This document shows positions 811-17,237 of a DNA stretch of 24,768 nt, in pieces. Location: IMG/VR virus record IMGVR_UViG_2778261381_000006, positions 1 through 24,768 of that record, one strand, 5' to 3'. A model generated the notes under the pieces. It did not search any database. It was not told the origin of the DNA and saw only the letters and a list, made by a program, of their open reading frames with translations. This stretch comes from a virus (taxonomy: Duplodnaviria > Heunggongvirae > Uroviricota > Caudoviricetes). The position numbers and the translations under genes are program-made. Every line of letters begins with the position of its first letter. Position 1 is the stretch's first letter.

Positions 811-825
811 CGGTACATTCCTTCC

Positions 826-854: not shown

Positions 855-870
855 TGGTCACGTAATGGGA

Positions 871-2016: not shown

Positions 2017-2448
2017 TCAACGGGGAGTAATAAAGCGTTCAGAGCCTAATCGCTCTAATTCAACGATGGCCATCTTTGACGCCTGAACGATCATGTCTCG
2101 GCGATGCGAAAAGGCGGCGACAGCATGTTTGTATATGTCTGCGATGTGCCGTGCTTCATCCAACTTCTGCCGTTTAGACAGATACTGTGGGTTTGTTTTA
2201 ACCTTAGCGTCCAGTACAGACTCGTTGAACTTAATGCCGTTCATACTCAAGTTCTTACGCTCTGTGTCGTATAGCTTTGCTTCAACAGCTTCAAGGTTAA
2301 GTTTTGCCTCTGCGACATCTCGATCTGCCTGCGCTAGTTTTGACCCATACTCCATTAAAAGCCGTGGCTGTTTACGCCATACTTCCTCAAGGTTGTCGCG
2401 GTCGAACTCCAGATCGGCCATGATTTTAGAAAAAATATCAGTGTTCAC
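2017..2448 (-). CDS. Hypothetical protein (143 aa), coiled-coil rich; possibly a recombination mediator by position next to SSB
   Basis: Clean ORF co-oriented with SSB and FEN; no recognisable catalytic motif. The UvsY-like idea rests on size and neighbourhood only. Confidence 0.5.
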   Translation of the reverse strand: MNTDIFSKIMADLEFDRDNLEEVWRKQPRLLMEYGSKLAQADRDVAEAKLNLEAVEAKLYDTERKNLSMNGIKFNESVLDAKVKTNPQYLSKRQKLDEARHIADIYKHAVAAFSHRRDMIVQASKMAIVELERLGSERFITPR

Positions 2449-2657
2449 TCTAATAGGTTCCTACTTATAAAATCTGTATCAATTATATCAAACAGAGAAC
2501 GGGTTTATGGCGTCATGTCAACTTTGTTCAGGGGAAAAATATTGAGATCACCGAAGATAATTAGTTGTCTTATTTTGGTAAGCTGTGCTGACCATCTTTA
2601 GGTCACATACATGAGATGGATGGGGGTGTGGCATGAACGGATGAAATTCAGTCGCCG

Positions 2658-2686
2658 TTGACAGATGTCAACACTGTGAATAGAAT
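2658..2686 (+). promoter_or_regulatory. Sigma70-type promoter with an operator-like palindrome over the -35
   Basis: TTGACA (2658-2663), 17-bp spacer, TAGAAT (2681-2686). TTGACA-ga-TGTCAA palindrome at 2658-2671. GGAGG RBS then ATG at 2704. Confidence 0.6.
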
Positions 2687-2703
2687 ACTATTATCGGAGG
2701 CGA

Positions 2704-2928
2704 ATGAAGCAACATCCGAATAAGCATATTCAAGCAGCCATTGACTATGCATTAAGTAAAGGCTGGATCTGGGTAGCAGCTGGTGGTGCTGCACATTGTT
2801 TTTGCAGACTGCGATGCGGTAATCCAGAAGGTGAACACAAAACTCACCAAATGAGCGTATGGTCGACTCCGGGTAATCCCGAAAACCATGCCAAACAGAT
2901 CAAACGAATGGTTGATCGTTGTAAATGA
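2704..2928 (+). CDS. Small HicA-like protein (74 aa), putative toxin of a two-gene module
   Basis: Pattern GW...GG.AH.F.R...G......H.MSVWSTP..NHAKQIKRMV resembles the HicA/YcfA fold signature as I recall it. Consensus promoter and RBS. The assignment is tentative. Confidence 0.45.
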   Translation: MKQHPNKHIQAAIDYALSKGWIWVAAGGAAHCFCRLRCGNPEGEHKTHQMSVWSTPGNPENHAKQIKRMVDRCK

Positions 2929-2988
2929 TTTCAAGGCGGCATTAGCCGCCTTTTGCAGAAACTGTCCAACTATCTTCAAAGGAAAACT

Positions 2989-3552
2989 ATGGCGCTTTAT
3001 AACTTCACTCTGACGCTCTCAGGCGTATCGTATGAGACGGAAGGACTGGAAGACGCGCTGTACCAAAACGGCTGTGACGATGCGCTAATTTGCGCATATG
3101 GAAACTCCGTCTATGTAGAATTTGACCGCGAAGCACAATCACTTGATGCAGCTATCGCATCTGCGGTCGACAATATTGAATCAGCCGGTATCGGTGCAAT
3201 TGTTGAATCCGTCGACTCGGCTCTTGTGGGCTTAAGCGATATCGCGGAACTGACAGACCTGTCTCGCCAGGCAGTGGCGTTGCTCAAAGACGGTAAGCGC
3301 GGAAGCGGCGACTTCCCTTGCCCTGTACAACGCATAAAAGGCCAGTCTCCTCTCTGGGATTGGGCTGATGTGGCTGAATGGCTCATGAATAACGGACGAC
3401 TTAAAGAGGGCGATCAAATTGTCCAAAATGCCCGAACTTTGAGTAAATGGAATCTGGCGCTTCGAAACAGCGTCTCGAAAGATTTCAACGAAATAGAGCA
3501 AATTGCGGAGAAACTGATTAAACGCCGCAAAGATATTGCGAAATGCGCATAA
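2989..3552 (+). CDS. HicB-like / HTH DNA-binding protein (putative antitoxin-regulator); start taken at ATG 2989, not the track's TTG 2953
   Basis: AAGGAAAA RBS before ATG 2989. N-terminal region has a HicB-like pattern (Y.FTLTL...NGCDDALI...). Helix-turn-helix-like stretch GLSDIAELTDLSRQAVALLKDG. Lies immediately downstream of the HicA-like gene. Confidence 0.55.
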   Translation: MALYNFTLTLSGVSYETEGLEDALYQNGCDDALICAYGNSVYVEFDREAQSLDAAIASAVDNIESAGIGAIVESVDSALVGLSDIAELTDLSRQAVALLKDGKRGSGDFPCPVQRIKGQSPLWDWADVAEWLMNNGRLKEGDQIVQNARTLSKWNLALRNSVSKDFNEIEQIAEKLIKRRKDIAKCA

Positions 3553-3553
3553 T

Positions 3554-3585
3554 GATGCCCGCCAATTGGCGGGCATCTGTTCTCT
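3554..3585 (+). terminator. Intrinsic terminator after the HicB-like gene
   Basis: GC-rich 10-bp stem gatgcccgcc / ggcgggcatc (loop aatt) at 3554-3577, followed by a T-rich run. Confidence 0.6.
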
Positions 3586-3668
3586 GTAAAGGTGTCTGGC
3601 ATCGTCTGGTTCGTTAACGTTTACTAAACCAATGGTGACAAAAATTAGTTATCTTTGAAAAATAAAGG

Positions 3669-3881
3669 TTGCATGAAAAGAAGGGGTATGCGTTAATAGC
3701 ATCGTTGGTTTGCAAGACAGACCTTATGTAAGCAGTTTTAGTAAAGCAGTCTCAGTTCAGTGTTATCTTCTGATTTCCCTTCTTCGTGAGTCTCCTCCTT
3801 AAGTGCCTAAGTAAGTCCCAATCTATACAGATCAAATTCTCGCCGCACTATGTGGCTCACAAAATTAAGAAGGTAATATCT
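3669..3881 (+). promoter_or_regulatory. Cold-shock gene promoter and long 5'UTR
   Basis: TTGCAT -35 (3669-3674), 17-bp spacer, GTTAAT -10, as in the E. coli cspA promoter. The following ~180-nt leader has cold-box-like sequence (tgcaagacagacc ... aaagcagt ... aagtccc) and an attaagaaggtaatatct ATG end like csp leaders. Confidence 0.6.
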
Positions 3882-4097
3882 ATGTCTAATAAAATGACTG
3901 GTTTAGTAAAATGGTTTAACTCTGATAAAGGCTTTGGCTTTATTTCTCCTGCTGATGGCAGTAAAGATGTTTTTGTACATTTTTCGGCAATTCAGAGTAA
4001 TAATTTCCGCACTTTGGAAGAAGGCCAGCAGGTCGAATTCTCTATCGAGAATGGGGCTAAAGGCCCAGCAGCAGCAAATGTCGTTGCTCTAAGCTGA
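3882..4097 (+). CDS. Cold-shock protein, CspA family (CspB/CspG/CspI-like)
   Basis: [38 protein letters not shown]... is near-identical to the enterobacterial CspA paralogues, including the RNP1/RNP2 motifs. Real start is ATG 3882, inside the track ORF 3786-4097. Confidence 0.9.
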
Positions 4098-4183
4098 TTC
4101 AACGCTGATGATCCTCATTTCTACAATAACGAAGACGGTGTAAGCCTGAGTGGATAGATTTGTAGGATTGTACAAGTTGAATA

Positions 4184-4210
4184 AATTAGCATGGTAAGGC
4201 CATGCTAATT
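4184..4210. terminator. Hairpin in the convergent gap between csp and dnaE-like genes
   Basis: Perfect 11-bp inverted repeat aattagcatgg / ccatgctaatt with loop taagg. Confidence 0.45.
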
Positions 4211-4373
4211 AAATCGACACAACGGCCAGTTTATTCCATAAAAGTGAATTGCCCATTGTGGCGAAATGCGGGGTTGCCGCATGAATAGTCAAAGGCAGAA
4301 GCTAACTGCCGGCATGGCAAAACAAAGTGCGTAAGAGGAGTGACTTCCTCAACAAGCGCCATAATTCTTTATA

Positions 4374-4400
4374 AACCCGCCAACAGGCGGGTTTTCTTTA
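4374..4400 (+). terminator. Intrinsic terminator for the plus-strand csp transcript
   Basis: Stem aacccgcc / ggcgggtt (loop aaca) followed by ttttctttatt; overlaps the stop of the dnaE-like gene. Confidence 0.5.
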
Positions 4401-7400
4401 TTACTTATTTATTGTCTCCGCGATATCAGCCAGAATGGCCTCCAGTCGCTCTCCTTCTTCCGGTCGGAAGTACAGGATATTCGGGTTAAATCCGTAGAAG
4501 ACGGTTGCATCAAGCTCTGGGAAGTACTCCTTACGACCAATCAGATCTGATGGTTTACTCTTATTGTTAAATAGTGCGGTTGAACGACTACCACACGTCA
4601 AAATGTAGGTTGGTCGTACAAGATTAATTTCTTCCCGCATAAAGTCTGTGAACTGGCCTATCTCGTCTTTGGTATAGTCTTTCTCTTTGTCCTTAACCTT
4701 CTTACAAACACCCGTGACATAAAGATCGCCCATGCGCAGATCTCCAACTGTCAGTAGTTTTGCCTTAAAGTCGTCGTATCCGTTCTCCATGAAGTAGCCG
4801 GTACGAGCGTCATTGCCGTTCGCATTGTCCAGAATGATCATGATTTTGGGTTTAATACCAATAGTCGGGCGTATCAACTCCTCACCCAAGCCCATTTCAG
4901 CCGCCATACGTGTCATGAGTACGTTGATTTCGGCAGAACGCTTAGGATTCATTTCGAACGGACGTGATGCTTTAACAGCGTCAATGATGAGATTGCCCAT
5001 CAGCTCAGCCTGGTCGCGCAGTCGTTCAGGATCAGTTGCTGGCAGACTGCCTGGCTCAATTGACGCAAAAGCCCCTACTTTATGAAGCGACTCGCGTACA
5101 CGACTGTTACATGCACGCTTCTCGACCGCTTCATCGAATTGTGCCACTGACTCGAATTTGCCACCAACTTTCTCACGCGCACGCATAATTGCCTGACAAC
5201 CATTTTCAGAACAGCCTTTCACAGCAGAGAATGGCGCATACAGTGCCTGACTGCCGTCTTCGAGTGTGCGGATCTCAATTCGGTTAGATGACACATTAAC
5301 GTCTGGTGGCAATACGCGAATGCCATAGGTCAGCGCATCCTTCACCAGCCCCTGATGCTTATCCTCGCCCAGAATGGTGAGCGCAGCTGCGAAGAACTCA
5401 GCAGGGTAGTGCGTCTTTAGCCACATAGACTGATAACTGATTAAAGAATAAGAAACGGAGTGTGATTTATTGAACTGATAGGCTCCGTTTTTCTCAAATG
5501 CGGTCCAGATCTCCTTCGCTTTCATCTCTGATAGCCCTGGATGTGACGCTGTAACGCGTACTGCGTTTATAGGTAGTTTTGCGCCGTGCTCAAGTGCCTC
5601 TTCGACAGTTTTCAGAGTTCCGTCTTCGCATTTAAAATGTTCCGCACGGTGAATGCGCTGTGTAGTGCCATCTTCCAGCTCAACGTCTATCCAGCCAGCT
5701 TGAGCCTGAACGATGAACTTCTCGCCCATGCTCTTCATTTTTTCCATGTTCTTCTTACCGATTGCGGAACGCACAGCGTCAGCTTCAGCCATTGTGAAGC
5801 CGGCAAGCAATCGAGTCGCGTTCATCGTCTGTTCCTGATAGAGAATCACGCCATTTGTTTCCGCGGTAAGTTCATCAAGAACGGGGTGTAATGATTCCGG
5901 CGTCATAAAGCCTTTGGCGACAGAAACATAGTCATCCAACATGCCTGATTGAATTGGCCCCGGCCGGAAGAGCGCAGTTGTAGCGACGACCGTTTTAAAG
6001 CTCATTGGCTCAATTCCACCACCTAAATCTTTAAGCAGCTTGCGCATTGGGCCTGATTCAAGCTGGAAAACACCTTGAGTGTACCCAGCAGCAAAACCAT
6101 CCAGCACCTTGCGATCTTCAAGAGAAATGGCATCAAGATTGATATCTTCACCTGTGTTCTCTTTTATGTAGCGTTTTGCACTATCGAGCAAATCGAGAGT
6201 TGCCAGGCCAAGCACGTCCAGCTTAATTAGGCCCATAGCCTCGCAGTAACGCTTGTCAAATGCGATACAACGCGCGTCACCACGGCGCTCAACCGGTGTA
6301 CGTTCTGTCAGAGGAACACCTGCTACGATCATCCCTGCCGCATGTCTACCAAAGCCACGCATAAGGCTTTGTAACTTGCAGGCTGCATTGAATGCATCAG
6401 GATATTTTGTTGCGTATTTGTCGAGACTTGCCAGTTGTTCGCGCAGTTCTTCCAATGGAAGGCTATCATCCTCAGCGTTCTTCAGTTCTTTTGATACCGC
6501 CATATCTGCGGACTCCACACCATAAATACGAGCGGTGTCACGTAGTGCAGAGGCTGCGCCCAGGTAGGTGAAGTTCGGAATGCCTGCAACGTAATCTTCG
6601 CCGTAGCGTTCATTCAGATACTCGATCACCTCATGGCGACGTGCCTGGCTGAAGTCCAAATCCGCATCTGGCAAGTCGAGACGCTCAGGGTTGATGAAAC
6701 GTTCAAACAGAAGACCGTGACGGATAGGGTCGACGTTGGTTATGCCTATGCACCATGCCACCAAAGAGCCAGCGGAGGAACCACGACCAGGCCCGACAGG
6801 AATGCCAGTTTCACGGCTGTGATTCATCAGATCGCGTACCATCAGGAAGTAACCACAAAATCCCAGGCGAGTAAGCGTGTCCATTTCGTACTTAAGTCGC
6901 TCAACATAAACCCTGTTCTCAGAAGCCGGTGGTGTGTATCCAAACTCTTTTGTGGTAAGACGTTTACGCAGCCCTGCAACAGCCAGTTTCATCAGCGTTG
7001 CAGGTTCGTCGTCTGCCATCTTGGGCAGTGCTGGTGGCAATTCATGCCAGCGCCATGTACAGGCTTCGATAATGGAGTCCTGCGTTGTTGAGGCCATTGC
7101 AGCTGTTACCGGCACATCCATGCGAACGGAGAAGGCTTTAAGCGCCTCAAGGAGATGGCGGCGACCATTGACGGCGTTATCTCGCTGGTGGGGTATACGC
7201 AGACGATGCGGCTGGTCGATTTTTATGTTGTTCGTAACCATGTGCGCAATGTCTTTAATGTCTGCATCGTCGATCGATTCGTAATAAGCGGGATAGAACG
7301 CTACTGGCTCTATTTTCAGTGCGCTGGCTACTTTCATCGCTCGGACGTTAATCTGGTCGTAGAATGGGGTAGGGTGCGGATAAACCACGCTATAGAAGTT

Positions 7401-7919
7401 GTCTTTCCCGCCCGCTGTAATCAGTGAGCTTATGATTTTTGCAAAATCGTTGCGTTGGAACACGCTACCGATGTCGGAAGTGAGCAGGATGATGTTGCCT
7501 TTGGCATATGTAGAAACCAACTGTTCGAGCGAGAGACGCGGTACAAAGTAGAACTGTTCTCGTGTGTTGGCCACCGTCATTAGTTCGCAGATGTCGCGAT
7601 ATCCTTGCTCATTTTTAATTAGAGCGGTAAACGAGTAGTTACGTCCCCGCTCTAATGATTCCATACATCTCATAGATTCTTTAGCAAGTTTAGCCCGGTG
7701 CTCGTATGTGGGATCATCAACGATATTTAGTTTCACACCACAAATAACCGCCATGTCGTCACCAGCGGCACGTTGTAGTGGAATAACACTCGCAATATTC
7801 ATGCTATCTGCTGAAATTACAGCGGTGTAGCCAGCTTCTCTGGCAATCTTCACCGCGTTTTCTGCTTTTAGAGCCGACTCCCCAAGTGAGAAGTCAGTTC
7901 GAACCATCAGTGCTTTCAT
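4401..7919 (-). CDS. dnaE: DNA polymerase III alpha subunit homologue (DnaE-type, C-family replicative polymerase), phage-encoded
   Basis: 1172 aa. N-terminal PHP-like region. Signature blocks match E. coli DnaE: GFCGYFLMVRDLMNHSRETGIPVGPGRGSSAGSLVAWCIGITNVDPI...LLFERFINPER, YQEQTMNATRLLAGFTMAEADAVRSAIGKK, GAYQFNKSHSVSYSLISYQSMWLKTHYPAEF. Divergent elsewhere, consistent with a phage copy. Confidence 0.85.
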   Translation of the reverse strand: MKALMVRTDFSLGESALKAENAVKIAREAGYTAVISADSMNIASVIPLQRAAGDDMAVICGVKLNIVDDPTYEHRAKLAKESMRCMESLERGRNYSFTALIKNEQGYRDICELMTVANTREQFYFVPRLSLEQLVSTYAKGNIILLTSDIGSVFQRNDFAKIISSLITAGGKDNFYSVVYPHPTPFYDQINVRAMKVASALKIEPVAFYPAYYESIDDADIKDIAHMVTNNIKIDQPHRLRIPHQRDNAVNGRRHLLEALKAFSVRMDVPVTAAMASTTQDSIIEACTWRWHELPPALPKMADDEPATLMKLAVAGLRKRLTTKEFGYTPPASENRVYVERLKYEMDTLTRLGFCGYFLMVRDLMNHSRETGIPVGPGRGSSAGSLVAWCIGITNVDPIRHGLLFERFINPERLDLPDADLDFSQARRHEVIEYLNERYGEDYVAGIPNFTYLGAASALRDTARIYGVESADMAVSKELKNAEDDSLPLEELREQLASLDKYATKYPDAFNAACKLQSLMRGFGRHAAGMIVAGVPLTERTPVERRGDARCIAFDKRYCEAMGLIKLDVLGLATLDLLDSAKRYIKENTGEDINLDAISLEDRKVLDGFAAGYTQGVFQLESGPMRKLLKDLGGGIEPMSFKTVVATTALFRPGPIQSGMLDDYVSVAKGFMTPESLHPVLDELTAETNGVILYQEQTMNATRLLAGFTMAEADAVRSAIGKKNMEKMKSMGEKFIVQAQAGWIDVELEDGTTQRIHRAEHFKCEDGTLKTVEEALEHGAKLPINAVRVTASHPGLSEMKAKEIWTAFEKNGAYQFNKSHSVSYSLISYQSMWLKTHYPAEFFAAALTILGEDKHQGLVKDALTYGIRVLPPDVNVSSNRIEIRTLEDGSQALYAPFSAVKGCSENGCQAIMRAREKVGGKFESVAQFDEAVEKRACNSRVRESLHKVGAFASIEPGSLPATDPERLRDQAELMGNLIIDAVKASRPFEMNPKRSAEINVLMTRMAAEMGLGEELIRPTIGIKPKIMIILDNANGNDARTGYFMENGYDDFKAKLLTVGDLRMGDLYVTGVCKKVKDKEKDYTKDEIGQFTDFMREEINLVRPTYILTCGSRSTALFNNKSKPSDLIGRKEYFPELDATVFYGFNPNILYFRPEEGERLEAILADIAETINK

Positions 7920-9335: not shown

Positions 9336-9430
9336 GCGCTTTTCCTTTGTTCTCTAATGAGCGTTCAAGTTCTTATATAAATATACCATTAACTATGGTA
9401 AGTAGTTACTTATCATTAAGGCTGTTTTAA

Positions 9431-11539
9431 TTACTTCAAAATGATACGAGATAGTTCAGTAACTACAGATGAACCAAGACTATCAACACTAGTTACCAGG
9501 GCATGATTTGCGTAAAATCTCTCCGGTGCATCAGTCATGATGCCAATTGCCATCAAATCAATGTCAGTCTGCGTTTCAATTTGCTTCGTAACCGAACGCA
9601 AATGGGCGTCAAAACCTCTCCCAACAGCCCACGGCGCGCCATCACTCAGAACAAGCATGATCTTCCTGTCCTCCAAGCGACCGGAAAATAACGATGCAAG
9701 GCTGGCTATGCTTTCACCATCCACGTTATTAAGAAGTGGGAATGTGTAGCCTACGCACCCCATACGTGAGCGAACTTCGCGAGAATTTGCTTTTTCATTC
9801 CAATTTTTGATGATAGGTAGCATTAAAGATTCAAAGCGAGAGAACTCATATTTGATAGCCTTAAGTTCTCCTGCTGCCATATGACTGCCAAATGTAGTGA
9901 AGCCGGTGATAATGTTGGGAACATTTATTCGATCAAGTGCATCGGCGATGGTATATGCACTTGCAAGAGCTAGTTTTATCGTTTCGCCACTCATTGAACC
10001 CGATAAATCAATCACTTGTTGAACACAGGCGTTAACGGCTTTAGATTCTTCTTTTTTACGAAACACGCGATCATCATTCATTGTTAATCTGTAGATACTT
10101 GAACCATGAATGCGCCCCCGACGCTGGCCAGGTATAAACTGAACTCTGTTTCTGCTTGCTATTGCACGTTCCAGGTCTTTTGCCAGCGTCGACGAAACAC
10201 CTGACGAAAGGTGCTTTTCAATATATTTGTCGAAGAGCTGGTTGCCTTCAGGAACGATGCGATAACGGCTGATTGGATATCCACCTAAATCAATATCGGA
10301 GAATGTTTTAATAAGCCGTTTGATATGGGCTTCTGCCTGATCAATCGAGCCGATGAAGTCGTATGAGCGATTGTATGGCCTGTATTCGCTTTTCGAGCTT
10401 TCTGTTAACTCGCTTTTAATCGTTTCGGATAGCGCATCTTCTGTCATGCCTCCGACTTCATCTTCCATGCTATCCAACTCCTCTAAAGCCTCTTCCAGAC
10501 TCATTTTTGACGGAGTTGGAATGTCTGAAGAGCCGTCTTCTGTCGATTTTCTTTTTTCGTGGTCAGTGGTAAATGATTCTGACGCCGCGTTATCAGAAGC
10601 ACCAGAATCTGATACCTCTTTATCATTTTCTGTATCATCGAATATTGTTTCTGATGATTCAGAATTATCTGAATCATCACTGTCGTTATTATCATGTTTG
10701 TACTTACTGTGTGATTCTGATTTGATAGATTTGTGATTATCTAACGCTGAGGGTGTCTCATGATCTTCGTTGTCTTCATTGTTTTCTCCAGAGGCATCCG
10801 TCTGGTCAGCGTCTGAAGGATCGGAAGTTTTTCCCGGAGCTGACTCCTTACCTTTGCTTTCACTTTCAGTGTCTTTGAGGATCTTAGCTATGGTCGCAGC
10901 CACCTTTACACAATCCTCGGTGCAAGACATGTTACGCACGGCCACATCGATACCATGTTCTTTTAATAATGAAATTGGTTTCTCAATGACAGGCCAATAT
11001 TCATCCATGAAATCTACGAACGGTGCTTGGCCATCCCAGGCTCTTACAACCGGACAGAGAAAGAAGTTTAGAAAAAGCGCGCGCTGATCTTTGCCACAAT
11101 AAGCAATAGCCTCTGAAGCCTTTGTTTTAAAGACTTTTTCGATTATAAGGCGCTGAGTTGCCATCAGATTACGTCTTGTTCCGTTAAAGACCTGACCCAT
11201 TTTTCGCTCGATGAACACGTCTTCTAAGGCATTCCATAGCGACCAGGAAGGAACGCGTCCTTTTTCTCTCATTTTGTTGGACACACGAATATCGGTAAAC
11301 AAAATGTGAGCAACCTCATGATCGAGAAATCCGCGCACAGCATTCATCAATGCCGGTGTTGCGTTATCCGGGATTGATGGGATGTTTACGAGAATTGGCT
11401 CTCCATCATCGTTATAGCGTACATAAGCGTCGTCCCCTCGTTCTGCAACAGGGATGTTTTTACCTGAAAGGAGAGCGACTACTCGTTTTACACTGTCACG
11501 GAAGTCCTGAACCTCTTTGATGGAACGTTTTTTAGACAT
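9431..11539 (-). CDS. vWA-domain protein (CobT-like) with N-terminal HExxH motif and acidic central linker
   Basis: C-terminal MIDAS-type motif VIDLSGSMSGET. About 150 residues of D/E/S-rich low-complexity linker. N-terminal FLDHEVAHILF (HExxH). AAGGA RBS before the ATG. Confidence 0.8.
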   Translation of the reverse strand: MSKKRSIKEVQDFRDSVKRVVALLSGKNIPVAERGDDAYVRYNDDGEPILVNIPSIPDNATPALMNAVRGFLDHEVAHILFTDIRVSNKMREKGRVPSWSLWNALEDVFIERKMGQVFNGTRRNLMATQRLIIEKVFKTKASEAIAYCGKDQRALFLNFFLCPVVRAWDGQAPFVDFMDEYWPVIEKPISLLKEHGIDVAVRNMSCTEDCVKVAATIAKILKDTESESKGKESAPGKTSDPSDADQTDASGENNEDNEDHETPSALDNHKSIKSESHSKYKHDNNDSDDSDNSESSETIFDDTENDKEVSDSGASDNAASESFTTDHEKRKSTEDGSSDIPTPSKMSLEEALEELDSMEDEVGGMTEDALSETIKSELTESSKSEYRPYNRSYDFIGSIDQAEAHIKRLIKTFSDIDLGGYPISRYRIVPEGNQLFDKYIEKHLSSGVSSTLAKDLERAIASRNRVQFIPGQRRGRIHGSSIYRLTMNDDRVFRKKEESKAVNACVQQVIDLSGSMSGETIKLALASAYTIADALDRINVPNIITGFTTFGSHMAAGELKAIKYEFSRFESLMLPIIKNWNEKANSREVRSRMGCVGYTFPLLNNVDGESIASLASLFSGRLEDRKIMLVLSDGAPWAVGRGFDAHLRSVTKQIETQTDIDLMAIGIMTDAPERFYANHALVTSVDSLGSSVVTELSRIILK

Positions 11540-11637
11540 GGCTAATCCTTTGTTATGAAAACAAATTATTTACTAGTGTGTTTAATGTAGCACTGCGCGA
11601 ACAGGGAACTAAGCCATTCGCGCAGGGAGAAGAGGGG

Positions 11638-11850
11638 TTAACAGATTCTGACGGCTAAAGACCCGGAGCCGGTATTGAGAAGCGTGAAGCGTTTGTTGTT
11701 AAGTTCGAATATAAAGCCAGTTGTGTCATTCACACCAACCTGAATCTGCTCATTCGGTAGATCGGTGAGGATGTCAGCTACACACTCATCAGCTAATTTC
11801 TGTACGTGTCCGATCTCAAGAGCGATTAGGCTGGAAATAGTGGTGTTCAT
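11638..11850 (-). CDS. Hypothetical small protein (70 aa)
   Basis: ORF only; weak RBS; no motif recognised. Confidence 0.3.
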   Translation of the reverse strand: MNTTISSLIALEIGHVQKLADECVADILTDLPNEQIQVGVNDTTGFIFELNNKRFTLLNTGSGSLAVRIC

Positions 11851-12101
11851 TCAATCAATCCATTCTAACTTATACTATGGTAAGGAATACTACTAAAATC
11901 TATATCAATACTGAATACATTCATATCATATGCAAGTTGATTTTCTTACCTGTTTTGGGCTAATTTTTCTCCGTGCAATGGCCTTTAACCGGTCTTTTAA
12001 GTGCCTATCGAAAAAAATGATAATAGCTTTACAACCCTAACCTTTGATGTAATATCGGTAAGCACTTACCAGAGAGAATTGAACGCGCAAAGGTTGTAAC
12101 C

Positions 12102-12488
12102 ATGTCTGATAACAAGATTGAATTTATAGAAAGTCGCTACGCTGCTTTTATCGCAGGGTTGATTGAATCCTCACCTATGAGCCAGGCCCAGATAGCCAAA
12201 ACAATTGGGTATAAAAACGCCAACAACCTTTCTTTAATTAAAAGCGGCAAAATTCCTTTGCCTATCGATAAGGTTCGTCCGCTGGCGCTGGCACTGGGCA
12301 TTGAGCCAAGTCGTCTTATGATGATGGTGCTGGAAGAACGCCAACCCGAACTCGCAGCATTTTTATACAAAGAAGGCACTGCTCCTCTTAACGAGGACGA
12401 AAAACAGGTTCTTGCTGCATATAACGAGCGATTCGGTAAAGAGAAAGGCGCATCACAAAAGGTTGTTGAGGCCATAAAGTCTCTATGA
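12102..12488 (+). CDS. HTH DNA-binding protein (XRE/Cro-like regulator)
   Basis: MSQAQIAKTIGYKNANNLSLIKSGKIPLPIDKVRPLALALGIEP is a helix-turn-helix pattern. A GGTAAGcaCTTACC palindrome lies 40 nt upstream. Convergent with the recombinase gene. Confidence 0.6.
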   Translation: MSDNKIEFIESRYAAFIAGLIESSPMSQAQIAKTIGYKNANNLSLIKSGKIPLPIDKVRPLALALGIEPSRLMMMVLEERQPELAAFLYKEGTAPLNEDEKQVLAAYNERFGKEKGASQKVVEAIKSL

Positions 12489-13586
12489 AAAATTTACACG
12501 AATAAGCTCTGTTGATAGACGATCTCCCTTAAATTTGTGGTCAATTTCGTCTAAATCCGGTTGCTCTACGATTGATGCGATGTACGTCGAGAAACTTTCT
12601 AAGGCGTCTCGCATCTCGTCCATATAATCGTGCCGGTCGTAGACCCGATCTATCCCCTCAAGACTGTGGTTCATGATTTTACGTGATACCTCCTGGCTTA
12701 TGCCTAATGCTGGGAAGTAACTACGCGCAGTACGGCGCAAATCTCGGGGTGTAAATGGCTCAAGCTCCATCAGTTCTGGTCGTTCCAGAATACGACGTAA
12801 TGCCTGGGCTATTGCCACTTTAGACATAGGAAGGTCTTTCCCGATTTTTTTATTCGAAGGCACGAGCCACTGGCTGTCTTTACCATATTCGAACAACTCT
12901 TCAATACAAGTGCGCATTAATGAGCTTAAAGGCAGAGAATGCTCACGGGCAGATTTGTTCCTCTTGCCTTGATTCCAAACCCCACGCTTAAGATTGAACT
13001 CACTTTTTTTAGCCCGCAGTACTTCGTCAGGTCGTCTTGCGGATACAAGACATAGCCTGGCCGCCCATTTTGTACCAGCGCACACATTGAAGTAGTCCCA
13101 TATATTCCAGAACACCCATACCTCTGCGTCGGTCAGCTTCCGCTCGCGAGGTGTGGGCTTTGCGCCACCGGCAACTTTGTTAAGTGACATATCGTTTAAC
13201 GGTGACACGTCTATCATCCCCTGGAAGGCGCACCAGCTAAGGAACTGCTTCATCAGAGAGAAAACGCGGCGGCCCATAACAATTTTGCCATCCAGTATTA
13301 GTGGGTTGACCAGTTGGTTCACCATGAACCTATTAATGTCACTTACTTTTACATCGGCAATGTGCGGCAAAACATGTATCAAAATACAATGAACAGCGAT
13401 CTCTGGCCGACGTCTGGTTATCAGCAGAGATAAGCGAGTGAATAACATGAATGCGTCCGAGAATCTCATGTCATTGCTGACCTGGGAGATCATAACGGCC
13501 TGCATTTGAGATGCTCTTTCGAGATACTCTATCGCCTCTTTTGAGGTGTTCTCCGCAGCGCGTGCTCTGTCAAAGCTATTTTTCAT
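12483..13586 (-). CDS. Tyrosine site-specific recombinase (integrase family)
   Basis: Catalytic blocks: ARLCLVSARRPDEVL (Arg I), PRDLRRTARSYF (box II region), NHSLEGIDRVYDRHDY with the nucleophile Tyr. GGTGA RBS before the ATG. Confidence 0.85.
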   Translation of the reverse strand: MKNSFDRARAAENTSKEAIEYLERASQMQAVMISQVSNDMRFSDAFMLFTRLSLLITRRRPEIAVHCILIHVLPHIADVKVSDINRFMVNQLVNPLILDGKIVMGRRVFSLMKQFLSWCAFQGMIDVSPLNDMSLNKVAGGAKPTPRERKLTDAEVWVFWNIWDYFNVCAGTKWAARLCLVSARRPDEVLRAKKSEFNLKRGVWNQGKRNKSAREHSLPLSSLMRTCIEELFEYGKDSQWLVPSNKKIGKDLPMSKVAIAQALRRILERPELMELEPFTPRDLRRTARSYFPALGISQEVSRKIMNHSLEGIDRVYDRHDYMDEMRDALESFSTYIASIVEQPDLDEIDHKFKGDRLSTELIRVNFS

Positions 13587-13613
13587 ATGACAATCACCGA
13601 GTTACGCCGATGC

Positions 13614-13660
13614 ACTGTATAAGTAAACAGTATATTAGGCATAGATTCTTATAGGATCAA
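13614..13660 (-). promoter_or_regulatory. Sigma70 promoter for the recombinase with an overlapping LexA-box-like site
   Basis: On the minus strand: TTGATC (-35, plus 13655-13660), 17-bp spacer, TAATAT (-10, plus 13632-13637). Then CTGTATAAGTAAACAG (plus 13615-13630), which fits CTGT-N8-ACAG, between the -10 and the start codon. Confidence 0.5.
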
Positions 13661-13684
13661 GAGTAAAAGTAACTCATTTTCAGC

Positions 13685-13717
13685 AATGATTCCATACATA
13701 GTAGGTATGGAATCATT
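13685..13717. repeat. Perfect 13-bp inverted repeat with 7-bp spacer (AATGATTCCATAC-ATAGTAG-GTATGGAATCATT)
   Basis: Exact reverse-complement arms at 13685-13697 and 13705-13717, about 25 bp upstream of the recombinase -35. The architecture matches tyrosine-recombinase core sites such as loxP and FRT. Confidence 0.7.
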
Positions 13718-13762
13718 TAGCCGTTGTTTTTTGAATTTTAAGGGAACCAAGCGTGAGTTTGG

Positions 13763-13792
13763 TGGGAACAAAAACGGCTCCTGTGAGCCGTT
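13763..13792 (-). terminator. Intrinsic terminator after the glutaredoxin gene
   Basis: Stem aacggctc / gagccgtt (loop ctgt) followed on the minus strand by TTTTTGTT. Confidence 0.55.
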
Positions 13793-13796
13793 AAAA

Positions 13797-14042
13797 TTAG
13801 AGAGTGGTGACGTATGCAGCCAGTTCTGTGTATCCGCCAATCGGTTGGCCATCGATCAGTACCTGGGGGATAGTCTCTACCGGTTTGCCAACAATTTCGC
13901 TAAGTTTTTCCTTATCGATACCGGCAGTGGTGATGTCGATGTACTCATAATCACCATAGCCGTGTCCCTTTAGTTGTTTCGCCAGCTCGACCGCACGTTT
14001 GCAATATGAGCAGTTATCTCGTCCGTAGATAACGATAGTCAT
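13797..14042 (-). CDS. Glutaredoxin (GrxA-like, CxxC thiol-disulfide oxidoreductase)
   Basis: Active site CSYC near the N-terminus; GKPVETIPQVLIDGQPIGGYTELAAYV closely matches E. coli glutaredoxin 1. Confidence 0.85.
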   Translation of the reverse strand: MTIVIYGRDNCSYCKRAVELAKQLKGHGYGDYEYIDITTAGIDKEKLSEIVGKPVETIPQVLIDGQPIGGYTELAAYVTTL

Positions 14043-14181
14043 GTTTACCTCATAATAATTATGTGTTACTTAACCAGAAAATAAATATTACTATAAAAGA
14101 TAGGTAAGTAAAAACCTATTTAATGTCTGCAATACATCGTAAACTTGCCTGTTAATCACAACTTAATTTAGTTAATATTTA

Positions 14182-15510
14182 ATGCAACTAACAATGGTAA
14201 GTACGAGAGCATACATGCCTGTTTTTATTTCTGTTGCAATTCTAATGTTTTCCATAATAATTTTGTTTTTAGGTTTACTACTTGAGCCATTTCAAGATTG
14301 GAAGGTTACAGACCAAATTGCTGTATTGAGTAGTTTTATAACGACAGCGGCTTTTTGTGCAACAGCGTGGAACGCCTATGAAGCAAGAAAAAGTGCAAAG
14401 GCAGCACTGGAGGCCGTTAGGATAACTACCGATTCATTGATTGAGATGAGAAAAAATTCTTTCAAAGAATGGTTTGACACTTTATTAAATCAGCATGATG
14501 AGTTGTACAATAATGTCATACCAATCATTGAACAGACAAAAAAACAATTTAATAAAAATGAAATGCATTCGTTTTTTTATCCATTGGTAAGAAAGCATGA
14601 GGTTATTCAGTACATAAAACATATTACCAATATATTAGTCTATGTAGATAACCGATTTTACATAGATGGAAATTGTTTTGATGAAAAAATGGAATATATT
14701 ATTCAATTGAGTGGAAAAATACCACCGCAAATGAAGTTGGTTATTGCAGTTTTTGGATTGGACATCGATTCTCGTGAACCGCAGGATTCAAAAAAACTGT
14801 ATGCTTTATTAAATAAATATGATTTTTTCAAAGATGAAATATTCTTTGATGATGCTTATTCAAGCATGCCTGAAGTAGAGCTATTTATAAAGGATAGATT
14901 TGATAAAATATTTAAAACCAAGATGTTAAAATACTTTTGGAACGTGATTAAGGAATATTATTCTCAAGTTGAAGTCAAAGAAATCTGGGTGGTTCGTCGT
15001 CCGCAAGTTGCTTCATCGGTATTAATGAACTACCAAACACCATTATCTGGTTTAATTGATGATTATTTTAAAAATTTGCCAAATGAGGTAAAGAGCATTT
15101 TTGATGAAGCACTAAAAAAAGCTAATGATAGTGTTACGTCTATTGATGACTATATTCATCGTTTGATCGGTTGCAGAGTCGCGTCGATTTCAGAGCATGT
15201 CCATTTCGAAAGTGAAATACTGAGTAGTGAAAAGGATGTGAAGGATATGATTAAAAATTACATAGAGCAAAGAAAAACTGGAAAAAATGCGGTAAATCTT
15301 GGGCAGTTATATTTCTCGAGTGAGTCAGATGTAATTACAGGTGATCAGTTGAGTGATGCGATCGATGAATATGAGAAAAAGTTGGCACTTATGGCAATAA
15401 ACGATAATGATGATAGTGATAACCTATTGTGCCATATCTATATTAAATCATGTGAGATAGTTGATGAATATAAGCGTGAAACATTAAAATTGGGCGAGTA
15501 CGCACAATAG
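14182..15510 (+). CDS. Membrane-anchored protein of unknown function (2 N-terminal TM helices plus ~380-aa soluble domain); candidate exclusion or abortive-infection factor
   Basis: Markedly AT-rich relative to flanks. Hydrophobic segments MPVFISVAILMFSIIILFLGLLL and IAVLSSFITTAAFCATAW. No catalytic motif recognised. True start may be ATG 14215 (weak GAGAG RBS). Confidence 0.65.
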   Translation: MQLTMVSTRAYMPVFISVAILMFSIIILFLGLLLEPFQDWKVTDQIAVLSSFITTAAFCATAWNAYEARKSAKAALEAVRITTDSLIEMRKNSFKEWFDTLLNQHDELYNNVIPIIEQTKKQFNKNEMHSFFYPLVRKHEVIQYIKHITNILVYVDNRFYIDGNCFDEKMEYIIQLSGKIPPQMKLVIAVFGLDIDSREPQDSKKLYALLNKYDFFKDEIFFDDAYSSMPEVELFIKDRFDKIFKTKMLKYFWNVIKEYYSQVEVKEIWVVRRPQVASSVLMNYQTPLSGLIDDYFKNLPNEVKSIFDEALKKANDSVTSIDDYIHRLIGCRVASISEHVHFESEILSSEKDVKDMIKNYIEQRKTGKNAVNLGQLYFSSESDVITGDQLSDAIDEYEKKLALMAINDNDDSDNLLCHIYIKSCEIVDEYKRETLKLGEYAQ

Positions 15511-15523
15511 GTTGTGCAGATTC

Positions 15524-15551
15524 GAAGCCTCTTTAAATTTTGCGCTGAAAA
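15524..15551. repeat. Direct repeat copy 1 (gaagcctctttaaattttgcgctgaaaa)
   Basis: About 28 bp matching 16445-16474 with 2 mismatches; the two copies flank the lipoprotein gene. Confidence 0.6.
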
Positions 15552-15588
15552 TTGTTATTTTACGGTAAGTAACGCTGTTTTCAGCGCA
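15541..15588. other. Large hairpin in the convergent gap (11-bp stem tgcgctgaaaa / ttttcagcgca, 26-nt loop containing a GGTAAGTA motif)
   Basis: Exact 11-bp inverted repeat; the loop contains ttacggtaagtaacg. Confidence 0.5.
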
Positions 15589-15761
15589 TAAATGTCAGTG
15601 AATAATTTGATGCTTGCTGTAACGATGGTACGCTACGTAAAATCCGATATTTATGAGACTGATTGCAGGTAAGGACTTACATAGCGCACAAAAATTGCTG
15701 ATACCAGATGCAATATATGTTTAATGTCAAATTTTAGATAGGGGCGTATACGCCCCTGTCA

Positions 15762-16609: not shown

Positions 16610-16696
16610 TGGCGGAGAGTAATGGAATCGAACCATCATCGTTTGCACAATGGGACGGTTTTCAAGACCGCTTGAGCACCATGCTCCCTACTCTCC
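16610..16696 (-). tRNA. tRNA-Ser (anticodon UGA), type II with long variable arm
   Basis: Manual fold: acceptor GGAGAGU/ACUCUCC, anticodon stem-loop GCGGU-CUUGAAA-ACCGU, T-arm GAUGG-UUCGAUU-CCAUU, encoded CCA. The D-arm is irregular. Confidence 0.7.
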
Positions 16697-16990
16697 AATT
16701 GTGTTGTGTGCTCCGTTTCGTGGAGCTAACGGCGGGTGATCAGACCGCACCAGGTTGGACGTATTTCAGCGTTATGCTGTTGCAAGAGAGCCAAATTGTG
16801 ATGGCCGGTGCTGATCTCCGGCATTGCCTACGTTAGCGGCCTTCAGGCAGTTCATCCGCTTGCTTCTACGTCGCACATCAGCCTGTGCATTCACCACAAT
16901 GTTGAGAACACTGGTTGTCACGCTGCAACGCAACATTATATTCATAAATTGGGATATGAACCCGTTACGCCAATGTTCTCAATATTATGT

Positions 16991-17066
16991 TGGTGCCGGT
17001 TAACGGACTTGAACCGCTGGCCATTTGCTTACAAAGCGACTGCTCTACCAACTGAGCTAAACCGGC
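16991..17066 (-). tRNA. tRNA-Thr (anticodon UGU), anticodon stem with two mismatches
   Basis: Acceptor GCCGGUU/AACCGGC, D-arm GCUC-AGUUGGUA-GAGC, T-arm AGCGG-UUCAAGU-CCGUU, encoded CCA. Anticodon loop UUUGUAA, but the stem GUCGC/GCAAA pairs at only 3 of 5 positions. Confidence 0.5.
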
Positions 17067-17070
17067 AATT

Positions 17071-17157
17071 TGGTGGGGAGTGATGGAGTCGAACCACCCG
17101 AGTCGCAATGACAGTAGATTTACAGTCTACACCGCTACCTCTACGGACTAACTCCCC
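17071..17157 (-). tRNA. tRNA-Tyr (anticodon GUA), type II
   Basis: Acceptor GGGGAGU/ACUCCCC, anticodon arm GUAGA-CUGUAAA-UCUAC, T-arm GGUGG-UUCGACU-CCAUC, long variable arm, encoded CCA. Confidence 0.7.
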
Positions 17158-17162
17158 TAAAT

Positions 17163-17237
17163 TGGCGATGGTGGGTGGATTCGAACCACCGACCAGTTGG
17201 TTAACAGCCAACTGCTCTACCGCTGAGCTACACCATC
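17163..17237 (-). tRNA. tRNA-Asn (anticodon GUU)
   Basis: Canonical cloverleaf: acceptor GAUGGUG/CACCAUC, D-arm GCUC-AGCGGUA-GAGC, anticodon arm GUUGG-CUGUUAA-CCAAC, T-arm GGUGG-UUCGAAU-CCACC, encoded CCA. Confidence 0.8.

Follow-up and report, generated by a model that had tools for sequence, protein, structure and literature searches.

A putative lox-like site-specific recombination module with a predicted LexA box in SSU5-type phage-plasmids

The tyrosine recombinase locus described here, together with the palindrome that precedes it, is on balance best read as a phage-plasmid's self-contained module for site-specific recombination, which by analogy would serve lox-like multimer resolution and possibly cyclisation. 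Recombinase and site most likely keep the copies of the plasmid separated. The locus lies in a stretch of 24,768 nucleotides (hereafter the window; positions 1 to 24,768 of IMG/VR record IMGVR_UViG_2778261381_000006), and its anatomy, the linkage of gene and site, their co-variation, their conservation and the mosaic boundary beside them were read directly from the loci compared. To judge from its promoter sequences, the module is probably subject to autoregulation and induced in the SOS response. Mosaic breakpoints cluster at its outer edge, and isolated copies of the site's arm hint at a second role, DNA-binding or regulatory.

Host replicon and distribution

The window belongs to a phage-plasmid of the SSU5/pHCM2/pMT1 type, a setting that the original prediction did not recognise. 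It is a 100% match to 110-kb E. coli plasmids that carry phage structural genes together with RepB and ParA, and its relatives include pHCM2 (the typhoid plasmid), pMT1 (the plague plasmid) and Klebsiella plasmids. The largest phage-plasmid supergroup counts an ‘integrase’ among its persistent genes (PMC7969092); its members include Y. pestis pMT1 and S. Typhi pHCM2. Among 5,426 complete E. coli genomes, 252 (about 5%) contain the recombinase module, in 262 places that are all plasmid-borne; none of the 262 is chromosomal. One record with the gene in two places, NZ_MZ475704.1, was considered as a natural cointegrate and rejected, being an IS-mediated fusion in which the second recombinase is unrelated.

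The pair of gene and palindrome was found in about 140 loci from many genera, with one copy of the full palindromic site per replicon. The module also occurs alone, with phage genes absent, on large contigs and plasmids of Pantoea and Rahnella; the distant loci include contigs of 250-900 kb and annotated large Pantoea/Rahnella plasmids, where the flanks are ordinary cargo genes. Phage SSU5 is missing the whole module, which is therefore dispensable for lytic growth, and the end points of the SSU5 deletion do not coincide with copies of the arm.

Recombinase and neighbouring genes

The recombinase gene (12483..13586, minus strand) encodes 367 amino acids with core-binding and catalytic domains. 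Its product matches the Pfam family Phage_integrase (PF00589) with E=2.9e-10 and 40.6 bits against a cut-off of 27.1, which places it in the superfamily and, with a lambda-Int-like fold, bears out the original prediction of a tyrosine recombinase in this region. The candidate catalytic residues, assigned by sequence comparison, are R185, K211, R284, H307 and Y316. Four of these (R185, K211, R284 and Y316) are invariant among 18 homologs of 43-87% identity, and this invariance extends to replicons without isolated arm copies; H307 is nearly invariant, with Gln in two of the 18. The position of the first conserved catalytic His is occupied by Arg (R281) in all family members compared. The same type of substitution is found in one P4-like relative that bears an arm domain and whose activity is only putative, so the His-to-Arg change is not confined to the family of the window recombinase.

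In Foldseek comparisons the best match is lambda Int (E=2.7e-7), and the nearest folds are lambda Int and Tn1549 Int, with XerH, IntI and Cre also matched. Cre ranks 42-50 with an E-value of about 0.02 and a TM score of 0.45, and it is absent from the recombinase's sequence matches to solved structures; neither sequence homology nor close structural similarity thus ties the protein to the Cre family. MrpR/YopR is a weak match (E=2.6e-3, TM 0.33). IntI appears as a lower-ranked fold match, and no IntI family match was obtained, the NCBIfam search returning only a sub-threshold hit to a generic integrase domain. By sequence, prophage integrases of the P4 and lambda types are the protein's closest relatives, and all records annotate it as ‘site-specific integrase’. 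The arm-binding domain PF13356 is present in no family member and is carried by the next-nearest homologs, the P4-like integrases; the N-terminal 70 amino acids of the window recombinase are predicted to be helical. Of the two hallmarks of heterobivalent lambda/P4-type integrases, the N-terminal arm-binding domain is lacking from the family, and chromosomal integration with attL/attR hybrids was seen neither in the 5,426 E. coli genomes nor in the 62 genome loci with a site; the enzyme resembles those of simple systems in having no arm-type DNA-binding domain.

A gene for a 128-amino-acid helix-turn-helix (HTH) protein (12102..12488, plus strand) is convergent with the recombinase gene and overlaps its 3' end by 6 nt. 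It was found only in phage-plasmid-type loci, and its homolog in the phage-plasmid Cyrano is annotated as a ‘putative repressor’ (PMC9928086). An AlpA/excisionase-like gene (2953-3552) lies about 10 kb from the recombinase and is retained in SSU5, which is without the recombinase. The terminator of the upstream gene (13773-13792) is separate from the palindrome.

Palindromic site

The candidate core site is a perfect 13-7-13 palindrome at 13685..13717, which reads AATGATTCCATAC-CTACTAT-GTATGGAATCATT on the gene strand. Its arms AATGATTCCATAC and GTATGGAATCATT occupy 13685-13697 and 13705-13717, and the 7-bp spacer CTACTAT (13698..13704, read on the minus strand) is the presumed region of strand exchange. 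The site has the format of simple systems, that is two inverted arms of 11-13 bp around a spacer of 6-8 bp. The perfect 13-bp inverted repeat with its 7-bp spacer, as first described, is the longest in the window, and none of 100 Markov-simulated windows reaches 13 bp, so its presence is beyond chance; its placement about 25 bp further upstream of the promoter also holds, the inner edge lying 24 nt upstream of the -35 hexamer. A secondary-structure calculation predicts a 13-bp stem for the palindrome (-12.3 kcal/mol, z = -8). Rfam has no match at the palindrome or in the structured-looking region 17443-18026.

The original proposal that this palindrome is a core site for the recombinase gains strong support from comparison of sequences. 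The site lies 46-290 bp upstream of the recombinase gene in 62 of 65 genome loci and in 76 of 80 viral loci, the viral exceptions being truncated loci or loci in which the gene is displaced by an insertion, probably a group II intron such as that found at the same spot in a related Klebsiella plasmid. Across 57 distant loci, the recombinase gene is the only conserved neighbour of the site. Both arms change symmetrically in distant relatives, from TGATTCCATAC to TGACTCCAGAC (T5 to C and T10 to G), and this co-variation tracks the divergence of the recombinase clades; outside that distant class the arms are invariant. The conservation extends to the sequence itself and is not limited to pairing. 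The spacer is 7 bp long in all loci and variable in sequence, with at least 15 variants, and it differs even among recombinases that are 98-100% identical; within the SSU5 group conservation is limited to positions 2 (T) and 6 (A). Of the sites in the 62 genome loci that have one, 58 are perfect palindromes and four have 1-2 mismatches, and no attL/attR-like hybrid arrangement occurs among them. A search for further copies of the palindrome, proposed with the original prediction, gave a split answer: the full site occurs once per replicon, and the extra copies are isolated single arms within the window. Invariant arms around a variable spacer of fixed length would also be expected from the dyad operator of a dimeric regulator.

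Outside the distal arm lies an A-rich block, AAAATTCAAAAAA (13727..13739, minus strand), the window's version of the motif TCAGAWTTC(A-rich), which is kept where the flanks are otherwise unrelated and is a possible accessory element.

Mosaic boundary

The site coincides with a change in relatedness between loci. Of 271 locus pairs that are near-identical on the gene side, 173 diverge beyond the site, against only 2 beyond a control boundary placed 400 nt from it, and 182 of 559 collinear pairs lose similarity no more than 3 nt from the core arm; both counts are pairwise, and the pairs are not phylogenetically independent. Relative to pRM9131-1, the window is 100% identical inward from 2 nt outside the palindrome, and outside that point identity falls to 91.5% or homology is absent. 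A single spacer class is found with at least six unrelated flanks, and the end of the F1 capsule operon on pMT1 is about 630 bp from the site, on its outer side. Breakpoints at the arm edge fit real crossovers; the DNA beyond the site serves as a cargo slot and could vary for other reasons.

Promoters and predicted LexA box

A promoter reading TTGATC-17-TAATAT, as originally proposed, is present upstream of the recombinase gene. This promoter, P2 (13632..13660, minus strand), consists of a -35 hexamer TTGATC (13655-13660), a 17-nt spacer and a -10 hexamer TAATAT (13632-13637). It scores 8/12 where the threshold of a simple scan is 9/12, and its hexamers are nearly invariant among 71 unique relatives. 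The predicted LexA (SOS) box TACTGTTTACTTATACAGTG (13613..13632, minus strand) begins within the -10 hexamer and extends across the probable start of transcription.

The core of the box, CTGT-N8-ACAG (13615-13630), is the sole occurrence of that pattern in the window, although the bare pattern is weak evidence alone, since it occurs at least once in 18 of 100 shuffles. Scored with a weight matrix derived from a set of E. coli SOS boxes, the site reaches 21.1 bits, against a training median of 19.7 and a best score of 17.7 from 20 shuffles. It ranks second on the 112,650-bp plasmid, where the other of two strong boxes precedes an S24/UmuD-like gene, and it agrees with the 20-bp consensus TACTG(TA)5CAGTA at 16 of 20 positions. 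Its CTG and CAG are invariant and its inner bases variable in the 71 unique sequences of the group of at least 81% identity, and likewise in a distinct clade (58%), where the box sits in a different promoter sequence; several lineages are without a box. The score, the overlap with the promoter and the conservation among orthologs are what would be expected of a member of the LexA regulon, and this conservation in two diverged clades supports the box that had been predicted at the recombinase promoter. Ciprofloxacin induces Cyrano, one of the related phage-plasmids (PMC9928086).

A possible ancestral promoter, P1, is suggested by the -10-like hexamer TACTTT (13666..13671, minus strand), about 14 nt after the proximal arm. 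Nearly all lineages, among them those that do not have the LexA promoter, keep a -10-like hexamer (TATTTT, TAGAAT or TAAAAT in relatives) at this spacing from the arm. The -35 region of P1 would overlap the proximal arm, which suggests autoregulation.

Isolated arm copies

The exact 13-mer arm, which the original description gave for the palindrome alone, occurs five times in the window (7654+, 13685+, 13705-, 17430- and 18455-) and nowhere else on the 112,650-bp plasmid. Apart from the palindrome itself, four or five isolated arm copies, extended to aTGATTCCATACATC, are conserved within about 6 kb on either side of it; all are oriented toward the palindrome, and they are syntenic among relatives. 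One copy, AATGATTCCATACATC (7654..7669, plus strand), lies antisense inside dnaE at about codon 85, where wobble positions are conserved inside the motif and variable around it. Another, AATGATTCCATACACC (17427..17442, minus strand), is non-coding, about 190 nt upstream of a tRNA cluster, with an invariant motif in a poorly conserved context; this non-coding copy is mutated in SSU5, where the recombinase has been lost. The third, again AATGATTCCATACATC (18452..18467, minus strand), contains the start codon of a 50-amino-acid ORF (MIPYI..., phrog_6302). A degenerate copy, CTTGATTCCAAAC (12968..12980, plus strand), lies inside the recombinase gene, antisense to codons VWNQ; most other lineages have an exact copy (TGATTCCATACATC) in that position (+606).

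No recognisable partner arm lies 7 bp from any isolated copy. No convincing sigma-70 -35/-10 pair was seen by eye around the copies, and a promoter scan of the copies' strand at 17430 and 18455 (7654 lay outside its range) gave no promoter-like site. A reading of the copies as mini-ORFs (MIPYI...) was rejected, as downstream frames are not conserved and no Shine-Dalgarno sequence precedes them, except at the real 50-amino-acid gene. The isolated copies are neither needed for resolution nor explained by it.

Proposed mechanism

The mechanism takes Cre/loxP of P1 and ResD/rfsF of F as analogues, and binding, catalysis, the direction of the reaction and both regulatory steps are what we infer from it and from the sequences. 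The inverted 13-bp arms would be bound by two recombinase monomers, two sites on a head-to-tail multimer would synapse, and strand exchange across the 7-bp spacer via Tyr316 would convert multimers back to monomers, so that the low-copy plasmid-prophage would segregate faithfully. In the same way, incoming phage DNA with terminal redundancy could be made circular, and two co-resident plasmids that have the same spacer could be fused. At the older promoter P1, recombinase bound to the proximal arm would cover the -35 region and shut off its own gene. In SSU5-type lineages, the second promoter, with its strong predicted LexA box over the -10 and start site, would add damage control: DNA damage would bring more RecA-driven multimers and prophage induction, and the supply of LexA-controlled recombinase would rise.

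The original description of the system as Cre/loxP-like stands for architecture and probable function and fails for protein kinship. As in P1, a recombinase without an arm-binding domain adjoins a single inverted-repeat site with 13-bp arms and a short asymmetric spacer on a plasmid-prophage, and the roles expected by analogy are the same, multimer resolution and cyclisation. The differences from P1 are that no sequence homology to Cre is detectable, that the spacer is 7 bp and not 8, that the site abuts the promoter, and that the window locus adds a LexA box and isolated arm copies. Between the resolution and inversion originally offered together, resolution is favoured because there is one full site per replicon, no chromosomal copy in 5,426 E. 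coli genomes and a spacer that differs among close relatives.

Alternative explanations

It is possible, though unlikely, that the recombinase-fold protein is mainly or only a DNA-binding regulator resembling MrpR/YopR of Bacillus phage SPbeta and forms part of an SOS switch, with the palindrome as its autoregulatory operator and the isolated 15-mers as further operators. MrpR shares with the window protein a recombinase fold and a place in a prophage control region, and it binds a dispersed element of roughly 15 bp (PMC10516654), to which the four isolated, syntenic and wobble-conserved 15-mers would correspond as candidate sites. The predicted LexA box, a gene convergent to a putative prophage repressor, the change of the first catalytic His to Arg and the mutated copy in recombinase-less SSU5 also point this way. 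Against it, the Arg, Lys and Tyr residues are invariant here, whereas the catalytic residues of MrpR are lost (PMC10516654), the MrpR match is weak compared with that of lambda Int, and the window has a full two-armed site with a 7-bp spacer. The occurrence of the module alone on Pantoea and Rahnella replicons and the mosaic breakpoint at the arm edge likewise favour an active recombinase.

We would give a similarly low probability to a variant in which the recombinase of enterobacterial SSU5-type phage-plasmids has a second job as an SOS-released DNA-binding factor acting at dispersed sites. LexA cleavage would then lead both to production of the recombinase and to antisense transcription into the convergent repressor gene, monomers would occupy the four isolated 15-mers (at the small-ORF start, upstream of the tRNA cluster, in the recombinase's own gene and in dnaE), and the combined effect would help shift the plasmid-prophage from maintenance to lytic replication. 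If so, an active recombinase would double as a regulator, and the element's only LexA box other than that of the UmuD-like gene would be its damage sensor.

An ordinary integrase, with the palindrome as attP core and with integration into and excision from a chromosomal attB, is quite improbable. The uniform annotation, the AlpA/excisionase-like gene and the kinship with prophage integrases suit it; in structure and in sequence the core-binding and catalytic domains are most closely related to those of lambda Int and P4-type (CP4-57-like) enzymes, and the crossover of lambda has the same 7-bp length as the window spacer. The window recombinase differs from these enzymes in lacking the N-terminal PF13356 domain and in having Arg in place of the first catalytic His, and its element, always on plasmids, has neither attP arm sites nor a chromosomal attB. 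None of the 262 E. coli places is chromosomal, the sites are almost all perfect palindromes with no attL/attR-like hybrids, a spacer that differs among near-identical elements is incompatible with a shared attB, and the AlpA-like gene is kept in SSU5, where the recombinase is gone. Integrons offer a parallel of another kind, since IntI/attI also combines a LexA box in the recombinase promoter (LexA control of intI is well established and was reportedly described by Guerin et al. in 2009) with a site directly upstream and a variable cargo slot alongside; unlike that system, the window protein has no IntI family match, its site is a simple double-stranded palindrome, and its cargo is multi-gene and heterogeneous.

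There is little to recommend the palindrome as an operator through which another regulator, the 128-amino-acid HTH protein or a host factor, controls the recombinase promoter, even though dyad symmetry lies directly upstream of or overlaps the promoter and the HTH gene adjoins in phage-plasmid loci. In about 50 loci the palindrome is present and neither an HTH homolog nor any other common neighbour can be detected; changes in the arms follow the recombinase clade, and in E. coli no copy of the region is chromosomal. Arms of 13 bp with centres 20 bp apart are, moreover, atypical for HTH dimers.

Inversion in the manner of a switch or shufflon, with crossover between the palindrome and the one-armed copies as in Rci with sfx of R64, is highly improbable. 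Rci sites can reportedly have one conserved 12-bp arm and a 7-bp spacer (Gyohda et al. are said to have described this), so the window's isolated copies, which have one conserved arm and flank the palindrome in opposite orientations, resemble them, and the copies at 7654+ and 18455- share 20 identical bases in the window. The idea of shared spacers was rejected, as that 20-nt identity is lineage-specific and other lineages differ: in most lineages the spacer-equivalent bases of the copies differ mutually and from the palindrome. No partner arm is recognisable, and inversion would split dnaE, yet gene order is constant in all related loci compared and dnaE is annotated as intact in every locus where it lies fully within the stretch. 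Finally, the predicted stem and the compensatory changes between the two arm classes lend almost no credence to the idea that it is a hairpin in RNA or DNA, for instance a terminator or processing site, and not a protein target, since the palindrome has no T-run, a terminator scan does not call it and finds a separate terminator nearby, its sequence and not merely its pairing is conserved, and it precedes or overlaps the -35 of its companion gene while the upstream genes vary.

Significance

Multimer resolution by a dedicated recombinase at its own site would give a function and a target to the ‘integrase’ of the supergroup, including those of pMT1 and pHCM2. In the full-text literature searched on phage-plasmids, pHCM2/pMT1 and LexA, the site and the predicted LexA control in SSU5-type elements are undescribed, as are SOS control of a plasmid resolution enzyme and conserved, oriented half-sites, with an older mention possible; a text search for the arm 12-mer matched only unrelated papers. 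The two natural classes of enzyme and site specificity, with simple 33-bp sites, could become recombinase tools orthogonal to Cre/lox. For the plasmids themselves, the site marks the edge of a lineage-specific cargo slot and so offers a testable route for the exchange of cargo between co-resident plasmids.

The palindrome upstream of the recombinase gene

The tyrosine recombinase gene (window 12483-13586, minus strand) encodes a 367-aa protein with a Phage_integrase domain and is preceded by the perfect 13-7-13 palindrome AATGATTCCATAC-CTACTAT-GTATGGAATCATT (gene strand; window 13717-13685, minus strand). All other perfect inverted repeats in the window are shorter, and a 13-bp repeat was reached in 0 of 100 simulated windows. 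The order on the gene strand is the terminator of a glutaredoxin gene (13773-13792), the palindrome, the -35 and -10 hexamers and then a LexA-box 20-mer.

Linkage of palindrome and gene was evaluated in two sets: 65 loci from species-representative genomes, and 80 of at least 119 matching viral-contig stretches, the latter found by the palindrome pattern itself. An inverted repeat with 7-bp spacing is located 46-290 bp upstream of the recombinase gene in 62 of the 65 genome loci (58 perfect palindromes, four with one or two mismatches). The three loci without a site comprise two outgroup proteins (32-34% identity) and one partial match. The recombinase gene adjoins the palindrome in 76 of the 80 viral stretches; in the other four, either the locus end cuts the gene off or an insertion has displaced it, and the inserted element is probably the group II intron that a related Klebsiella plasmid has at the same position by annotation. 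Two comparison loci are altered at this junction: in L200, a group II intron with an annotated ltrA gene (9374-10861) lies between palindrome and recombinase gene, and in L139 unrelated GC-rich sequence (13144-14137) replaces the gene downstream of the palindrome. When all open reading frames within a few kb were clustered, the recombinase was the sole gene shared among 57 distant loci, where the neighbours are unrelated cargo (TonB receptor, chemoreceptor, PagP, EgtB/D-like enzyme).

All lineages with a recombinase at 56-100% identity have the arms TGATTCCATAC. Those at 45-53% identity (Pantoea, Rahnella, Erwinia, Ewingella, Xenorhabdus, Photorhabdus, Morganella and Hafnia) have TGACTCCAGAC, with the same change in both arms, and a few lineages have intermediate arms; arm sequence thus co-varies with the recombinase protein. 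The spacer is 7 bp in all loci, with at least 15 sequences that differ even among recombinases 98-100% identical, and within the SSU5 group its conservation is limited to positions 2 (T) and 6 (A). Judged from these alignments, co-varying arms around a variable 7-bp spacer are the pattern of a tyrosine-recombinase core site that would partner a sister copy, not a fixed chromosomal attB. As the original prediction proposed, the palindrome is very probably the binding site of the recombinase.

A further motif, TCAGAWTTC followed by an A-rich run, occurs 10-27 nt outside the distal arm (the arm away from the gene) in both arm classes, in the window (AAAATTCAAAAAA, 13739-13727, minus strand) and at the same position in loci L004-L069. 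It is kept even where the remaining flank is unrelated, which implies that every flank that came in already carried one half of a complete site. The motif may be an accessory element.

Recombinase family

Homologs of the recombinase were collected, and 18 at 43-87% identity were aligned. No substitution occurs at R185, K211, R284 or Y316; two homologs have Gln at H307; and the first conserved His is Arg (R281) in all family members and in one P4-like relative that bears an arm domain. The nearest outside relatives are P4-like integrases at no more than 34% identity, from which the family stands sharply apart; the arm-binding domain PF13356 is present in these integrases and absent from the family. 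The best fold match of the AlphaFold model (pLDDT 81.6) is lambda Int (E=2.7e-7), followed by Tn1549 Int, Xer proteins and IntI. Cre matches only at E about 0.02, and the recombinase-fold repressors MrpR and YopR are found weakly. The system was originally likened to Cre/loxP, which holds for its architecture, the arm domain being absent, but not for its family, the fold being nearest to lambda Int with Cre far lower.

Host element and candidate reactions

Window positions 11500-15600 match several ~110-kb E. coli plasmids at 100%, the best being NZ_CP151018.1 (coordinate = window + 7154). Since phage head, tail, terminase and lysis genes stand together on this plasmid with RepB, ParA-type and many replication genes, the window is assigned by gene content to the SSU5/pHCM2/pMT1 phage-plasmid supergroup, whose persistent genes include a tyrosine recombinase (PMC7969092). 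Relatives at 73-78% nucleotide identity include S. Typhi pHCM2, Y. pestis pMT and Klebsiella plasmids.

Multimer resolution or cyclisation is somewhat favoured as the main role of the module. A search for further palindrome copies gave no second full site on the 112,650-bp plasmid, only isolated arm copies, and pHCM2 likewise has one full site; a single full site per plasmid is all that multimer resolution requires. Chromosomal integration is unlikely as the reaction: the region is present in 252 of 5,426 complete E. coli genomes, plasmid-borne every time with 0 chromosomal occurrences, the genome-locus sites are all complete palindromes with 0 attL/attR-like hybrids, spacers differ among close relatives, and the recombinase has no arm domain. 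Four phage-plasmid tRNA genes clustered in the window (Ser, Thr, Tyr, Asn; 16610-17237, minus strand) are no attachment site. An inversion switch between full sites, the other half of the proposed resolution or inversion, is ruled out by the one full site per plasmid.

Two other features of the window were recorded. A full-length cspA thermoregulator RNA element (Rfam RF01766, 185.7 bits; 3704-4122, plus strand) precedes a cold-shock protein gene. A non-coding stretch of ~580 nt between small open reading frames and the tRNA cluster (17443-18026, minus strand), also kept in SSU5, has many complementary segments by eye and matched no Rfam family, even at a permissive threshold.

Breakpoints at the outer edge of the palindrome

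Sequence comparison marks the outer palindrome edge as a hotspot of breakpoints. In 271 pairs of distinct loci, the 400 nt on the gene side agree at 98.5% or more; for 173 of these pairs, identity over the 400 nt on the other side is 93% or lower. A control boundary 400 nt further in gives this divergence in only 2 pairs, and one further out in 3. Of 559 collinear pairs, 182 lose similarity no more than 3 nt from the core arm, and almost none lose it at 11-30 nt. These pair counts are phylogenetically non-independent, and a cargo slot occupies the outer side in any case. Within the single spacer class CTACTAT, at least six mutually unrelated outer flanks occur. The recombinase proteins of the window and pRM9131-1 are the same, and the two sequences match at 100% inward from 2 nt outside the palindrome; beyond that point pRM9131-1 carries a toxin-antitoxin insert of 1.1 kb and a glutaredoxin gene at only 91.5% identity to that of the window. 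In Y. pestis pMT (L006), the caf1R-caf1M-caf1A-caf1 F1-capsule operon (245-5373) ends ~630 bp outside the palindrome (6003), on the side where sister plasmids have glutaredoxin, toxin-antitoxin or other genes. The sharpness of the breakpoints fits crossovers at the palindrome between different replicons.

Promoters and LexA box

The predicted promoter is present, with -35 TTGATC (window 13660-13655), 17 nt and -10 TAATAT (13637-13632), followed by the LexA-box 20-mer TACTGTTTACTTATACAGTG (13632-13613), all on the minus strand. The pattern CTGT-N8-ACAG by itself is not rare, being present in 18% of shuffles. With a weight matrix trained on E. coli SOS boxes, TACTGTTTACTTATACAGTG scores 21.1 bits, above the training-site median and the best of 20 whole-plasmid shuffles (17.7), and is the second-best box on the plasmid. 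The only other strong box (23.5 bits; NZ_CP151018.1 84563-84582, outside the window) is directly upstream of an S24/UmuD-like peptidase gene, beside a DNA polymerase III theta gene.

In 71 unique sequences, conservation forms islands at the triplets CTG and CAG, at the -35 and -10 hexamers and at the arms. This promoter with its LexA box is an addition in lineages at 81% recombinase identity or more; a separate ~58%-identity clade has another promoter, TTGACC...TAAATA, again followed by a box, TACTGTATATACATACAGTT. Another clade at 59-61%, Chimaeribacter and all TGACTCCAGAC-class loci lack the box. In nearly all lineages a -10-like hexamer (TAGAAT, TAAAAT or TATTTT; TACTTT in the window) sits ~14 nt past the proximal, gene-side arm, and with this spacing the arm would cover the -35 region, which suggests autorepression of the recombinase gene. 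The LexA box is likely to be functional, and control of the gene is probably dual, autoregulatory and by LexA.

A 128-aa HTH gene, a putative repressor confined to phage-plasmid-type loci, is convergent with the recombinase gene, and the 3' ends overlap by 6 nt (12483-12488); SOS-induced transcription of the recombinase gene would run antisense into the HTH gene. The HTH homolog in Cyrano is annotated as the putative repressor, and this related phage-plasmid is induced by genotoxic stress (PMC9928086). On Klebsiella plasmid NZ_MZ475704.1 (L196, ~6900-6990), an unrelated 377-aa tyrosine recombinase near RepB and Tus, with C-terminal motifs that look Cre-like by eye, has the LexA-box-like sequence TACTGTTTATAAAACCAGTA in front of it. 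Control by SOS may recur among plasmid recombinases.

Isolated arm copies

Lone arm sequences occur antisense in dnaE at about codon 85 (window 7654-7669, plus strand), in non-coding sequence ~190 nt before the tRNA cluster (17427-17442, minus strand; arm at 17430) and with the start codon of a 50-aa gene (18452-18467, minus strand; arm at 18455), and a decayed copy is found inside the recombinase gene (12968-12980, plus strand). The plasmid has no further copies, against a chance expectation of 0.05, and pHCM2 shares the set, with six exact 11-mers in a stretch of 13 kb. Every lineage whose arms are TGATTCCATAC also has the set, at syntenic positions, and the isolated copies have the 15-nt consensus aTGATTCCATACATC. 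Their wobble positions are conserved across the SSU5 supergroup. Xenorhabdus, Photorhabdus, Morganella, Chimaeribacter relatives and large Pantoea/Rahnella-type replicons have none. In the dnaE copy ~16 consecutive motif bases are fixed, and the flanks vary every third base as a coding region does. Copies upstream of the palindrome are all sense and those downstream all antisense, so that all point at it; with four syntenic copies, this shared orientation is only suggestive. A search at the isolated copies for partner arms, shared spacers and promoters found none.

The type phage SSU5 (JQ965645; L201 7738-7974) has a deletion between tRNA-Asn and cobT that took out the palindrome together with the recombinase and putative HTH repressor genes, and its non-coding isolated copy carries a point mutation (ATGATTCCGTACATC; 7559), the only such genome among those examined. 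This suggests that SSU5 is an immunity-deleted derivative.

The one-armed sfx sites of Rci are a precedent for isolated arm copies, and we know of no resolution system with conserved, oriented half-sites. The best one is SPbeta MrpR, a repressor with the recombinase fold that binds a dispersed 15-bp element (PMC10516654). The leading idea for the isolated copies is that recombinase monomers may act there in regulation or as architectural factors.

The original observation holds, and its interpretation is supported in the main points. What is new, as read from sequence, is a lambda-Int-related family without the arm domain, its putative 13-7-13 site in two natural specificity classes, probable dual control by autoregulation and LexA, and candidate half-sites, conserved and oriented, alongside a resolution-type module. 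This is most likely a simple lox-like site-specific recombination module that would serve multimer resolution of the phage-plasmid.
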